From a virus (Duplodnaviria > Heunggongvirae > Uroviricota > Caudoviricetes): a stretch of 28,031 bases of DNA. Position numbers: made by a program. Location of the stretch: IMG/VR virus record IMGVR_UViG_2713896798_000016; one strand, given 5' to 3'. This document shows, in pieces, positions 6,001-15,000 of this stretch (position 1 is its first letter; each line of letters begins with the position of its first letter).

Positions 6001-9000
6001 ATTGAGCAGCCCAAACCATCCCCATACCTTCAACAACAGGCTTCATAGGAACATAAGGCTCATTGTTAATTCCAACCAAAAAGAGATTTGTTCCGTGGAA
6101 TGGAACATTGATTGTGCGATCTGCAATTGCTAAACTAGTCATATCAGTTTTCTCGTGGTTAACTGGTAATTTAGAAGCCTCAATGGTTGCAGCCATTGAG
6201 GCTTCGCTGTTTTTAGCGACCATTCGCCACCTCTTCCCTAACACCTTTTGCCAGCAAACGAACAATTGCAGAGTTCAGAGATATACAGTCCATTTCCGCC
6301 AGGCGGCGAAGGTCTTCATTCAGCCGTGATGGAAGGCGAAGGTTGAGTTTGATATTTTTGCGCTCAGTGAAAAGTGTATCTTGCATTATCTAATCTCCTT
6401 TATTTGGTGCCAAAGTGACGCCATGAAGGCCATAATGCCACTATTGAAATCGTATGGCAATATGGCACCATGATTTTTTTTGAGAGATTTGCAATGGCCG
6501 AAAAACAAGTAAAAGACTACGACAAGTTCAACCTCCGTTTTCCTGACGGAATGCGAGATGCTATAGCTGAACGAGCCAAACGAAACGGGCGCTCTATGAA
6601 CTCAGAGATTGTTCAGATACTGGAAGATGCCTTGAATGCAGAAAATACACTCGGGGAAATAGCAGATAAAATTAACAGCGTCTCGGTTCCGCTAAATGTT
6701 GATGCGCTAGTTCAACTTCAAGCCCAGGTTATCGCCATGCAAAAAGAAATACAGGAAAAGTTCAGAGAGCAGAACGAAAAGTTGAGAGAACTACTAAATA
6801 AAAAACCCACCTGACGGTGGGCATAATCCATTACTGCGAAAGTTTATTAATGGAAAGGAAACCGCCAAAATTAGCCACCATGCCGCGCATCTCACACCCG
6901 CGCATGCACTTGCTGCATCTGTCCTTACGGATATCCGTGGTGGGGTTGTCGAACTCATCCGCCACAGCCCCGCCCGTGTAACCACACTCATCAGAGCGGT
7001 AGGTCCACATACAGGTATTCGCCAGCATGATACGACCGGGAAACAGCGCCCCGTCCGTCTCGGTCGGTGTGGCCAGCACAAACGAGGCTGTCATGGCCGT
7101 CAGCTCTGACATCTGCTCCACCACCCAGCGGTCGCTCAGCTCCTGCTCCGGGTCCGCTTCCGGATTGCCCGCCACAAAATTCACCGCATCCAGAAAACGG
7201 GCATACACCCGGCGGCGGACCACCGTGGCCCCCACCAGACTCTGCAGGTCTTCCGCCATCCCGGTGACCAGACCGAACAGATTGGACACCGTCAGTGACG
7301 GTCTGGCACTGCTGCCCTTCCCGCTCATCTCAAAACCGCTGCCGTCAATCGGGTATGCCTGATATTGCCGCCCCTGCCAGGTGACCGGCTCCCCTTTTTC
7401 ATTCAGTTCATTGCAGAAAAAATAGCGCTCACCGCCCTGCACCGTCAGGTCGATTTCCCAGAGCACCACCCGCGGTGACTGTTCTGATTTAACCGACTCG
7501 TTCAGACTTTCTTCATGAATGTCCTGCATCAGTTCACCACCTGCTCAATCGTACAACTGAAATCACTGTACCGGACGTTATCCGTGACGCTCCACTCCCG
7601 GCATACCACCCTGACCATCCGGTTATGTTTCGGCGGTCGCCACAAAAAGGCACGGTAACCACCATGCCACGATAAAAACTCTTCCAGCCAGCGCCGGGTT
7701 GACTCATCCGTCACCCGGAACACCGCCTGAAACGTCTTCAGTTGAGGATTCAGTCCTGTGGGGCGACGCTGTTCATAACCGTCACCAAACCGCACCCTCA
7801 CCACCGACGGCTTCTCACTCACCTGCATCCCTTCACGCGGGACCAGATGCAGCGTTTTTATCTCAGCCACTCAGCATTCCTCCGTCACGTCGCATGGACA
7901 ACATCACCGCCTGCACCCGCTGGTCAATCAGCTGCACAAGACTGCCTGCCGCCTCCGGCCCTATCTGGCCATTAGTCCCGTCATTCTGAATGGCGATATG
8001 GTAGACCGGGGAATACACCAGGCCCGCACTACCGTTCATACTGCCCACCGCTCGCACACCCAGCGAGCCATCCGCCGCCCGGGTCAGGGGCATAATGGCT
8101 TCAGGACCGGCCTCCCCCATCAGCCCCGCCCCTTTTGCAAAGGCAAAGTACGTGGGCGTATCCACAATACTGTTGCTGTACGCACTCAGGTTTGCCGAGG
8201 TATACACGCCGCCTTTTGCATTGGCCACCGCTCCGCCCAGCCAGTCACCAATGCTGCCGAGAAATCCTCCCGCACCGGACATACTGTTTGCCGCCGTCTT
8301 AATTCCGTTGACAATCGCGGCATTCATAAGAACTTTTGATATTTCCTGCAGCACTGATGAGGCCCAGCTGCGCCATTCCACTTTATTTCCGTTCAGCATC
8401 TCCGTGATGTTATTCACCATCCCTGAGATACCCTCCGTCGCAAGCTGTGCTGCCTGTGAGGCGTAATCGGACGCATTATCCACCCAGTTACTGAATCCCT
8501 CCTGCAGCCCTTTCTGCCAGTCCGCACGCTGCGCATCCGATTCGGCATAAAAGGCTTCCTGCTCTTTCAGACGTTCACTCAGATACTGTGCATTCTGCGC
8601 CAGAGCCTGTCTGTAAAAATCCTCACTGATATCCCCGGTCTGATACTGAGACTGAAGGTCCGCATCCTTCTGGCGGAAGCTGTCGCGGATCTGCTGCAAC
8701 TCCCGCATGCGTTCTCTGGCTCGTTCCCCCTGCCCGTACCCCAGCAGTTCAGCATCATTCGACGCACGCGCAGCCGCATTCTCATTCTTCAGTGTCTCTT
8801 CCCGGGATCGCAACTGTTCCCGGATTTTTTGCTGGTCAATCAGGGCCGCATTACGCAGCAGCTCCTGCTTCTGCATCTCCGTCAGGGTTTTCAGTTCGCC
8901 CTGCGCAGTCTGGTATTTCAGCTTCGCCAGCTCTGTATTCTGCCCCACCAGTGCCAGTTGCTCTTTCTGCTGCTTCAGCAGCCGGGAAAAACTGTCTTCC

Positions 9001-12000: not shown

Positions 12001-15000
12001 GCATCTGTGCCAGACGGGACTGCTCAACGGCAAGCTGCTCTGTTGCCTGAGCAAGCCCTTCCGTTACGGTCTTCACCGAGGTCAGATGGTTTATCATGAA
12101 TCCGTCACCGGTCGTCCAGCCCGGGTTCGCCAGAACATACTGATATCCTGCGATTTTTTCCTGCAGGGATTTCACCCGACTGGCCTGTTCATCAATCAGC
12201 CGGTTCTGCTCTGTCAGCGCCGCCCGTGTTCGTCCTTCATTATCTGAGGCTTCAGGCAAAGACATTGACGGCGTTTTATGCGCGATTTCATCTATCGTCA
12301 GTGCATACTGGCGCGCAGACTCCCTGGCCTGCTCCTGATTCTGGTACAGCGTGTACCATGCTGCAGCCCCCAGCATCACCAGTCCGGGTACGCCACCAAC
12401 CAGCCCCAGCGCACCGCTCATCAGACGTGAGCCCACCGCCGTTGTACTGTTCAGCGCATTCTGGGCGGCGCTTCTGGCAGCAATATTTCTGTTCAGGCGT
12501 TCCTGTGTGGCCGCCAGACGGGCCTCTGCAGCAATCTGCATCTCCGTCCCGCGGGCTGCCGCCACGGCCTGCTGAGCACGGTACACGGCTGCCCTTGCCC
12601 GCGCCGTGGCAATCTGCGTTCCCCTGAACTGTGCTTCCGCCAGTGCAACTTCATTACGTGCAGCCGTCACAAGTCCTGCCGTGGCAGACATCGCTCCGGA
12701 GGCCATATTGCCAAAGTACCGGGCAACCCCGACGGCAACCAGCGCGCCCACGGCTGTTGCCACATTCTCAATCTGTCCGGCAACACCGTTCAGCATGCCG
12801 GAGAGCGTTTTTGTCACCCCGCTGGCCTCATTCGCACCGCCCACCCAGGCCATAAAGGCGTTTTCCACCTTTCTGATACTACTGGAAACCGTTTCCGGCA
12901 TGGCCGCATATTCATCACGTAATATCCCCAGCTGGCTGATTAACGCGGGGACCACTTTATCCGCTGTCAGTTTTCCGTCATCCGCCATTGCCTTCAGATC
13001 TTTACGGGCCACGCCCATACCCGCAGCCAGTGCACGTACGATCCGGTCACCACTTTCATTGACCGAATTAAACTCCTCACCACGCAATACACCCTGCGCC
13101 AGCGCCTGACTGAACTGGGTGATCACCGAGCCCGCCTCTGCCGTACTGGCACCGGAGATTTTCAGCCCTGTCGAAATGGCCTCCGTCACCTTCAGCACAT
13201 CATCAGCACTGTAACCATATTCACGCATCGAGGCAGCCGAACGGGCAAACAGGGCCGCATTATCCGAAAATGCGGTGCCTGTCCGCTGGCTGATATCCAT
13301 CAGCACTTTCTGTGATGACGCAAATTCATCCGATGACTGCGACGCCTGTTTCAGACGGGCATTCACGGAGCTCCATTCATCCGCCAGCGAAATCAGGTGT
13401 CCGGTGGCAAAGGCACCGGCAAACGCACCGGTCATTCCGACAGCCGAAGCGCGGATTTCCGTCAACTGGCTGTGCAGCTCAGCCAGAGCCCGGCGCTGCT
13501 CCCTGGCTGCCGCAGCAGCCTGACGTCCGCCATTCTGCAGGGTCCGGTAATATTCACTGCCCATACGGGACGCCCGCTGGATCTCCGACTGGAATGACTG
13601 TGAATTTGCCGAAATTTTGATAATCAGTTCACGTAACGTCGCCATTCACCTTTCTCCGGGCAAAAAAAACCTGCCACAGCAGGTTTTCATCATTATTTAT
13701 GACATTGCTGCAAGGCTCAGCGCGTCTTCCAGCGCCGCAAACGGATCCACCTCCGGCTTATCCTCATCCTCGCCCCAGCAGAGCATGGCGTCCTTCAGTG
13801 CAACATTCATCCCCTGTGCCCCGAAAACCGCTTTCACGATCTGTGCATTACGGATATCCCCGCGCTCATCACCCAGCGGGGATACCCTGTCGAACTCCAT
13901 CCACATCATCGCCTCGCTCGCACTCAGGCTGTGCCGCAGTTCGGATAAGGTGCGCCCCAGACGGAGCGCAAGTCGCATCAGAAAGCGAATTTCCGGGCGG
14001 GCTACTTTTTTCTGGCCGACTCTGCATCAGCGATCAGTTCCAGTGCCTGACGCAGCAACCGGGCATGTACCGGACCATAGACGGCCAGCACCTGCTCACG
14101 GTCGTCCGGAGTGAACACCCGTTGCAGGTCCGTATCACACAGGACATCGCAGAACAGCGTCACATCCGCTTCCAGGTTACGGCGGGTTTTCGCCACCACC
14201 GACAGGGTATCGTCATCCTCTCCATCACCATTGAGCACTTCCTGCCACAGATACCAGGCCTCTGCCGAAGGCTCCCGCAGCACCACGCTGACATTTCTCC
14301 ATTCCGGCACCTTCACCGTTTTATGACGGAACCCCGACAGTCTGGCCAGCGCCAGTGTTTTCAGATCTTTTGCCATAAGCCTTATCCGCCCGCACCATTA
14401 ACCGTTACTGTACACGCATCAGAGGTAATGCTCTGCGGCTGTTCTGCAGAATCCGTTACCTCGCAGGTATAAGCCCCCTTATCACCTGACTGCGTATTGG
14501 CTTTACTGAAAGTGTCAGTAGTCTGTCCCTCTACCGGCTGACCATCCTTCTTCCAGGCGTATTTATACGGCGGCGTTCCCCCGTTGACACTGACTGACAT
14601 TGTCAGCAGCGCACCGGTATTCACGGTAAGTGTCTTCTCCAGATTTTTCACAAACGCCAGCGGTACCACATAGGACACCGGTTTACCCTTCAGGCGAAGT
14701 GAAAACGTTGCAGCCACCACGCCGTTGGTACCGGATGACCAGGTGTGCTGACGCACTTCCGCCAGGAACTTAAAGCCCTTACCGGACGGAAACTGCACCT
14801 TAAACGCATACACCGTGTCATTGTCATAGGCATCACGCAGGGCGTTCTGGGCCTGATTCAGATAAAAATTACCCGACATGGAAATCTCGGACGACGCCCC
14901 CAGACCGTTGATGTTCTCCTGCTCTGTGGAGCAGAGCGTGGTCACATCAATATCCTGTTTCTGACCGGCGGTGAACTGGACTTCCTTGATGGTGCAGTCC

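Follow-up and report, generated by a model that had tools for sequence, protein, structure and literature searches.

The tape-measure protein (TMP) gene of this prophage, of lambda type and on the minus strand, lies in two collinear pieces with a three-ORF IS66-family element between them, and the question raised by the locus is whether a simple transposition produced this arrangement or whether a deletion or rearrangement also took place there. An earlier note on the window (the whole stretch of DNA analyzed, 28,031 nucleotides) placed the element's left end at 9505, gave its length as 2.49 kb, found no 8-bp direct repeat, and proposed that either the ends were misplaced or a secondary rearrangement or deletion had occurred. 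Only the first of these alternatives holds, in that the left end was misplaced by 45 bp; the locus is almost certainly the product of one simple insertion of ISEc23 into TMP codon 552, with a normal 8-bp target-site duplication (TSD) and nothing lost or rearranged afterward.

The interrupting element is a complete, 2,532-bp copy of ISEc23 (9460–11991, plus strand), 100% identical over positions 1–2532 to many E. coli copies and an exact substring match to the full-length copies in loci L001–L003; it is so named because RefSeq/PGAP labels identical DNA "IS66-like element ISEc23 family transposase". IS66-family elements carry inverted repeats of ~20–30 bp starting GTAAGCG and generate an 8-bp direct repeat (PMC11946415), and their classic organization comprises three ORFs, the transposase gene being preceded by tnpA and tnpB (PMC12888890). 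The element observed here has all of these features. Its 24-nt terminal inverted repeats, GTAAGCGTAAACTGACCGCCGTAT on the left (9460–9483) and …CGTTGACGCTTAC on the right (11968–11991, ending …CGCTTAC), are 83% complementary, and both arms start with GTAAGCG. The three ORFs lie on one strand (plus) in the order A-B-C: tnpA (9545–9970; 141 aa) encodes an IS66 accessory protein with a helix-turn-helix (Pfam HTH_Tnp_1; NCBIfam IS66_ISRel24_TnpA, 83 bits against a cutoff of 74); tnpB (9967–10317; 116 aa) encodes an Orf2-like accessory protein (Pfam TnpB_IS66, 1e-36; NCBIfam IS66_TnpB, score above cutoff); and tnpC (10348–11961; 537 aa) encodes the IS66-type DDE transposase, with Pfam matches to DDE_Tnp_IS66 (9e-98), zf-IS66, LZ_Tnp_IS66, and DDE_Tnp_IS66_C and an NCBIfam transpos_IS66 score of 452 bits (cutoff 180). 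DNA identical to these ORFs encodes WP_000422741.1 (the annotation corresponding to TnpA), WP_000624722.1, and WP_000080195.1. The intact ORFs, the identity to many dispersed copies, and the fresh-looking TSD suggest that this copy may be able to transpose.

The ORFs and their domains thus bear out the earlier description of a TMP gene split by a three-ORF IS66-family element, and the right end had been correctly placed at 11991. The left end at 9460 is fixed by the inverted repeat and by full-length identity to independent ISEc23 copies; L001–L004 and L007 share the same element ends, each copy with its own 8-bp TSD. The misplacement likely arose because the C-terminal TMP frame stays open into the left end of the element as far as an ATG at 9489–9491, and the case shows how an ORF that is open into an IS end can mislead placement of the boundary. 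The supposed left flank, gagaattg (9497–9504), is internal to the element.

Once the left boundary is shifted by 45 bp, a perfect 8-bp direct repeat, CTTTTTCC, appears on both sides of ISEc23: the left copy occupies 9452–9459 (junction CTTTTTCC/GTAAGCG) and the right copy 11992–11999 (junction CGCTTAC/CTTTTTCC). A random 8-mer would match at two such fixed positions with a chance of ~1.8e-5. Perfect 8-bp TSDs likewise flank 15 of 18 other distinct complete ISEc23 copies, the remaining three having none. Empty sites contain CTTTTTCC only once. At least 17 complete E. coli genomes match the 800 bp of the rebuilt site with 100% identity, within a gene annotated "phage tail tape measure protein", and so do the phages BP-4795 and Stx2a_WGPS2. 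In alignment to L006, an intact relative, positions 1–9459 of the window correspond to 9654–19109 and positions 11992–23777 to 19102–30886; the two flanks therefore overlap by exactly 8 bp on the uninterrupted gene, which indicates that no TMP sequence is missing. The alignment identity to the intact L006 TMP on the N-terminal side is 99.98%, and the whole rebuilt gene differs from the 3,243-nt L006 gene by 2 nt. The comparison with an uninterrupted homologue that the earlier note proposed thus shows contiguous parts of one gene, and the normal duplication at exact ends, which it had named as grounds for rejecting its own reading and as the mark of a simple and recent insertion, is present.

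In-silico removal of the element and one repeat copy restores an ORF of 1,080 aa, the length of intact homologues, which bears out the earlier observation that the frames on the two sides are compatible with a simple insertion. The rebuilt protein contains the Pfam domains TMP_3 (2e-57), Phage_HK97_TLTM (1e-90), and Tape_meas_lam_C (6e-18; residues 862–933). These domains, together with a gene position that has the tail assembly chaperones (G/T) on one side and the minor tail proteins (M, L) on the other, identify a lambda-type TMP, and the gene order matches that of L006, L007, and BP-4795. In BP-4795, the corresponding gene is ORF67, a 1,080-aa functional analogue of lambda gpH, with the same length and domains as the rebuilt gene, 100% identity to it across the 800 bp around the site, and the same neighbors (chaperones upstream, minor tail proteins M and L downstream); the BP-4795-type gene is uninterrupted, whereas the TMP of this prophage is broken at codon 552.

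The N-terminal part of the broken gene (11992–13645, minus strand) comprises codons 1–551 and the first base of codon 552 and includes the right TSD copy. As called, its ORF spans 11948–13645, because it runs into the right end of the element (11948–11991) for 14 foreign residues, GKRQRSTVLTLIYW, before a TGA stop, a read-through that had already been recognized correctly. The C-terminal part (7863–9459, minus strand) encodes a 531-aa native suffix, which includes the E-K codons that the TSD duplicates, and is in frame with the IS-borne ATG at 9489–9491 and 11 codons (MATYGGQFTLT; 9460–9491, minus strand). No Shine-Dalgarno sequence precedes this ATG, no consensus promoter was identified for the C-terminal frame, and a scan for outward promoters and terminators in and around the element returned counts no different from those expected of shuffled sequence, and none close to the left end. 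Expression of the C-terminal fragment from the element is thus unsupported. The gene is inactivated; its product would have at most 565 aa (551 native residues and the 14-residue IS-encoded tail), and with a TMP so truncated the prophage on its own is probably unable to build a tail of the siphovirus type. To this extent the earlier conclusion of a lost tail function stands, but its absolute form is tempered by the lambdoid prophages of E. coli O157 Sakai, which have late genes damaged by frameshifts, deletions, or IS insertions (e.g., an IS-disrupted nu1 in Sp4) and can nevertheless be mobilized through inter-prophage interactions (Asadulghani et al., 2009; PMC2669165). The Sakai prophages resemble this one in having IS-broken late genes but differ in the IS, gene, and strain involved; IS insertion in a lambdoid late gene is an ordinary and already known kind of event.

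In the proposed history, a lambdoid prophage of the BP-4795/Stx-phage/effector-carrying type, as found in EPEC and EHEC, would have received a single intact ISEc23 by transposition into TMP codon 552; the 8-bp target CTTTTTCC would have been duplicated in the process, and the site would since have stayed unchanged, with neither loss nor rearrangement. The element matches other ISEc23 in sequence, length, termini, three ORFs, and TSD length, and only its insertion site is particular. A 401-bp query spanning the junction found no counterpart in 5,426 complete E. coli genomes, the only nearby insertion being a distinct one in E. coli strain 190, and the exact left junction (as a 30-mer) had no match among GTDB species-representative genomes or in IMG/VR. 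Because the element is identical to other copies, the TSD perfect, the flanks near-identical to intact alleles, and the junction absent from these E. coli genomes, the insertion is probably recent and would be specific to a strain or lineage. The same absence makes the clean junction usable as a strain- or lineage-specific marker. The locus is properly annotated as a tape-measure pseudogene::ISEc23 with TSD CTTTTTCC rather than as a rearranged locus; beyond annotation, the significance is small.

The insertion in strain 190 (NZ_CP020520.1) bears on whether chance alone placed ISEc23 in this gene. There, ISEc23 (6 mismatches in 2,532 bp) interrupts a homologous TMP in the same orientation with a perfect 8-bp TSD; the insertion lies 64 bp away, has a different TSD (CCCTTCTG), and sits in a diverged allele with ~91% flank identity, and so represents an independent event. 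Together with the A/T-rich core of ISEc23 targets (positions 3–6 of 16 TSDs are 81–94% A/T), this could hint at a sequence or regional preference, possibly for this segment of the lambdoid TMP, though we consider such a preference unlikely; if real, it would mean that lambdoid prophages with effector cargo are repeatedly immobilized in pathogenic E. coli through TMP knock-outs. Slightly less likely still is that the insertion was selected, in that the knock-out ("domestication") locks in a prophage whose relatives bear the type III secretion effectors NleG, NleB, and TccP2 as cargo, or that the TMP holds a preferred target region for ISEc23. Against these readings, the two insertions were recovered by a search only able to detect insertions near this site, an ascertainment bias that at n = 2 rules out calling the TMP an ISEc23 hotspot; none of 38 ISEc23-carrying loci on viral contigs has the element within a TMP; genes of lambdoid prophages are commonly hit by ISs (PMC2669165); and the other apparent defects of this prophage fit plain decay.

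It is highly improbable that a simple insertion is only apparent and that a mis-join through a repeated element placed ISEc23 in a TMP gene that is really intact. E. coli genomes carry ISEc23 in several copies (median of 3 places per genome), the nearby ISCro1 joins regions unlinked in relatives, and the assembly shows several single-base homopolymer indels against a near-identical relative, at 245, 2838, 2849, 2953, 3161, 16360, and ~17863, so that its base-level quality is imperfect and the apparent frameshifts in gpJ and the portal gene may stem from it; such indels could not account for an extra 2.5 kb bounded by identical 8-mers, however, and a repeat mis-join would not duplicate a unique 8-mer on both sides while joining exactly adjacent gene halves. 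The likelihood that deletion, rearrangement, or a non-canonical route removed the TSD, and possibly TMP sequence, is next to nil: TSD-less insertions do exist (the three ISEc23 copies above and the neighboring ISCro1) and no repeat is present at the ends first assigned (9497–9504 versus 11992–11999), but the true ends have a perfect TSD, and the flank overlap, the identity of the rebuilt site to uninterrupted genes, and the length of the restored ORF leave nothing missing.

Elsewhere in the window, a second IS, ISCro1 (23778–26476), has no TSD and connects two regions that are not linked in relatives, through a possible inversion, deletion, or mis-join, and the portal gene of the prophage carries an apparent frameshift.

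The tape-measure gene (TMP) of the lambda-like prophage is carried on the minus strand as two ORFs, encoding an N-terminal piece of 565 aa (11948-13645) and a C-terminal piece of 542 aa (7863-9491). The ORF listing, together with Pfam and NCBIfam matches, bears out the earlier note's claim that an IS66-type element interrupts this gene. The element encodes, on the plus strand, a helix-turn-helix TnpA of the IS66 family (9545-9970, 141 aa; Pfam/NCBIfam), TnpB (9967-10317, 116 aa; TnpB_IS66, 1e-36), and the DDE transposase TnpC (10348-11961, 537 aa; DDE_Tnp_IS66, 9e-98; transpos_IS66, 452 bits). 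A repeat search identified inverted arms of 24 nt at 9460-9483 and 11968-11991 (83% complementarity), both beginning with GTAAGCG, the signature IS66-family terminus (PMC11946415). The junctions read ...GGACTGCG CTTTTTCC|GTAAGCGTAAAC... on the left and ...GTTGACGCTTAC|CTTTTTCC TGCATCTG... on the right; arms and junctions therefore define an ISEc23 element of 2,532 bp (9460-11991), with a perfect direct repeat of 8 bp, CTTTTTCC, on either side (9452-9459 and 11992-11999). The repeat stops at 8 bp, with no longer match outward, and a chance match of an 8-mer at two fixed positions has a probability of ~1.8e-5.

The right end had been placed correctly, at 11991, in the earlier note; its left end, at 9505, was 45 bp from the true one, and this boundary error accounts for the apparent absence of a target-site duplication (TSD). 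The supposed left flank, gagaattg (9497-9504), is internal to ISEc23. Probably, the boundary was misplaced because the C-terminal frame remains open for 32 nt into the element, to an ATG at 9489-9491, which adds 11 in-frame IS-encoded residues (MATYGGQFTLT).

Removing ISEc23 and one repeat copy in silico restores a single ORF of 1,080 aa with TMP_3, Phage_HK97_TLTM, and Tape_meas_lam_C domains. The rebuilt 800-bp site matches 427 records at ≥99% identity. At least 17 complete E. coli genomes contain it at 100% identity within uninterrupted genes annotated as phage tail tape measure protein, as do phages BP-4795 and Stx2a_WGPS2 at the same identity; ORF67 of BP-4795 has the same length (3,243 nt) as the rebuilt gene. 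The near-identical prophage of E. coli SCPM-O-B-7615 (locus L006) has an intact TMP, from which the rebuilt gene differs at two nucleotides and its product at one residue. Window positions 1-9459 align to 9654-19109 of this locus and 11992-23777 to 19102-30886, so that both flanks overlap by exactly 8 bp on the empty site. Together the two pieces contain 1,082 native residues, as against 1,080 in the intact protein; the surplus is one E and one K, whose codons were duplicated along with the target site. The secondary rearrangement or deletion previously suspected here is thus refuted, and by an outcome that the earlier note itself named as decisive, a normal 8-bp duplication at the exact boundaries: nothing is missing where the flanks meet, and the insertion is simple. 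This is a textbook ISEc23 insertion, with the canonical 8-bp duplication of the IS66 family, in the TMP gene of a lambdoid prophage, and the phenomenon is already known.

The element is 100% identical, end to end, to many E. coli copies annotated as ISEc23 in RefSeq. It occurs as an exact substring in three retrieved copies with the same termini and different, perfect 8-bp TSDs (GCTCTTTC, AGTTTTTG, and TTAACAAG), which corroborates the assigned ends independently. Across a wider sample of 18 distinct complete copies from IMG/VR and the retrieved loci, 15 have a perfect 8-bp TSD and three have none. The TMP/ISEc23 junction was not found in 5,426 complete E. coli genomes, GTDB representatives, or IMG/VR. 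Because the element is identical to other copies, its TSD perfect, its flanks nearly identical to intact alleles, and its junction absent from the searched genomes, we infer from sequence comparison that the insertion is recent and specific to the strain or lineage. In the closest relative, E. coli SCPM-O-B-9504 (L007), TMP is intact and an identical ISEc23 (about 7198-9729; TSD AATTATTT) adjoins NleB and TccP2 in the effector cargo region of the same prophage, ~14 kb from TMP; this copy is a plausible candidate for a local donor.

Sixteen ISEc23 TSDs (window, L001-L004, L007, and IMG/VR loci L018-L046) are 69% A/T overall and 81-94% A/T at positions 3-6, with T exceeding A on the strand in IS orientation (55 vs 33); on this small sample, ISEc23 may favor targets with an A/T-rich core. 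An independent ISEc23 lies in a related TMP gene of E. coli strain 190 (L004, NZ_CP020520.1; 4265-6796), with six mismatches in 2,532 bp and its own perfect TSD, CCCTTCTG. It is inserted in the same orientation 64 bp from the window's site, at a position homologous to 12056-12063. The search that found it could detect nearby sites only, so we make no claim of a TMP hotspot.

At most, the interrupted gene would yield 551 native and 14 foreign residues. The C-terminal 529 codons have no credible start, since no Shine-Dalgarno sequence was found ahead of this frame and a scan for promoter-like sites returned only chance-level matches. Lambda gpH and siphovirus tape-measure proteins are needed for tail assembly; on this analogy, assembly from the prophage's own genes should fail. 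This expectation is tempered, however, by near-identical TMP genes in several lambdoid prophages per strain (up to eight places per genome) and by the mobilization of defective O157 prophages through inter-prophage interactions (PMC2669165).

The suspicion of rearrangement better fits a second IS66-family element, ISCro1 (23778-26476; 100% identical to the L006 copy), unless the junction is a mis-join. Its ends are IS66-type (GTAAGCG…/…CCGGTTAC), and no TSD is present in the 8-bp flanks (23770-23777, ccacgcaa, vs 26477-26484, gcttgtac). ISCro1 bridges the terminase-small-subunit end of the prophage and an unrelated P4-type tyrosine integrase (26766-28031, minus strand, the ORF ending at the window edge; Arm-DNA-bind_3, Phage_int_M, and Phage_integrase domains). 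In SCPM-O-B-9504 the integrase has a 100% identical counterpart at 4.44 Mb, 2.7 Mb from the homologous prophage at 1.75 Mb; the two are therefore not neighbors in the closest relative. Such an arrangement implies either that the IS mediated an inversion or deletion or that the assembly was joined across the repeated element.

With ISCro1 at its terminase-proximal end and defects in the portal and tail-tip (gpJ) genes, the prophage looks degraded beyond TMP. A G-run near 17863 has lost 1 nt (G5, vs G6 in the reference, phage YYZ-2008), which splits the portal gene (16624-19208) into ORFs of 454 and 407 aa; the YYZ-2008 portal is a single ORF of 861 aa. The same deletion occurs in SCPM-O-B-7615, and the PGAP annotation of two relatives marks their portal genes as frameshifted; the deletion may reflect genuine decay or a homopolymer error. 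Six single-base homopolymer indels (245, 2838, 2849, 2953, 3161, and 16360) separate the window prophage from that of SCPM-O-B-7615, to which it is otherwise 99.9% identical, and may be sequencing noise. Four fall in gene J, which is annotated as intact in SCPM-O-B-7615; either J is multiply frameshifted or these are base-level assembly noise. The C-terminal half of the portal also contains an internal direct repeat (17078-17682), seen as off-diagonal BLAST matches against L006, in which segments of 443 bp, displaced by 162 bp from each other, share ~94% identity.
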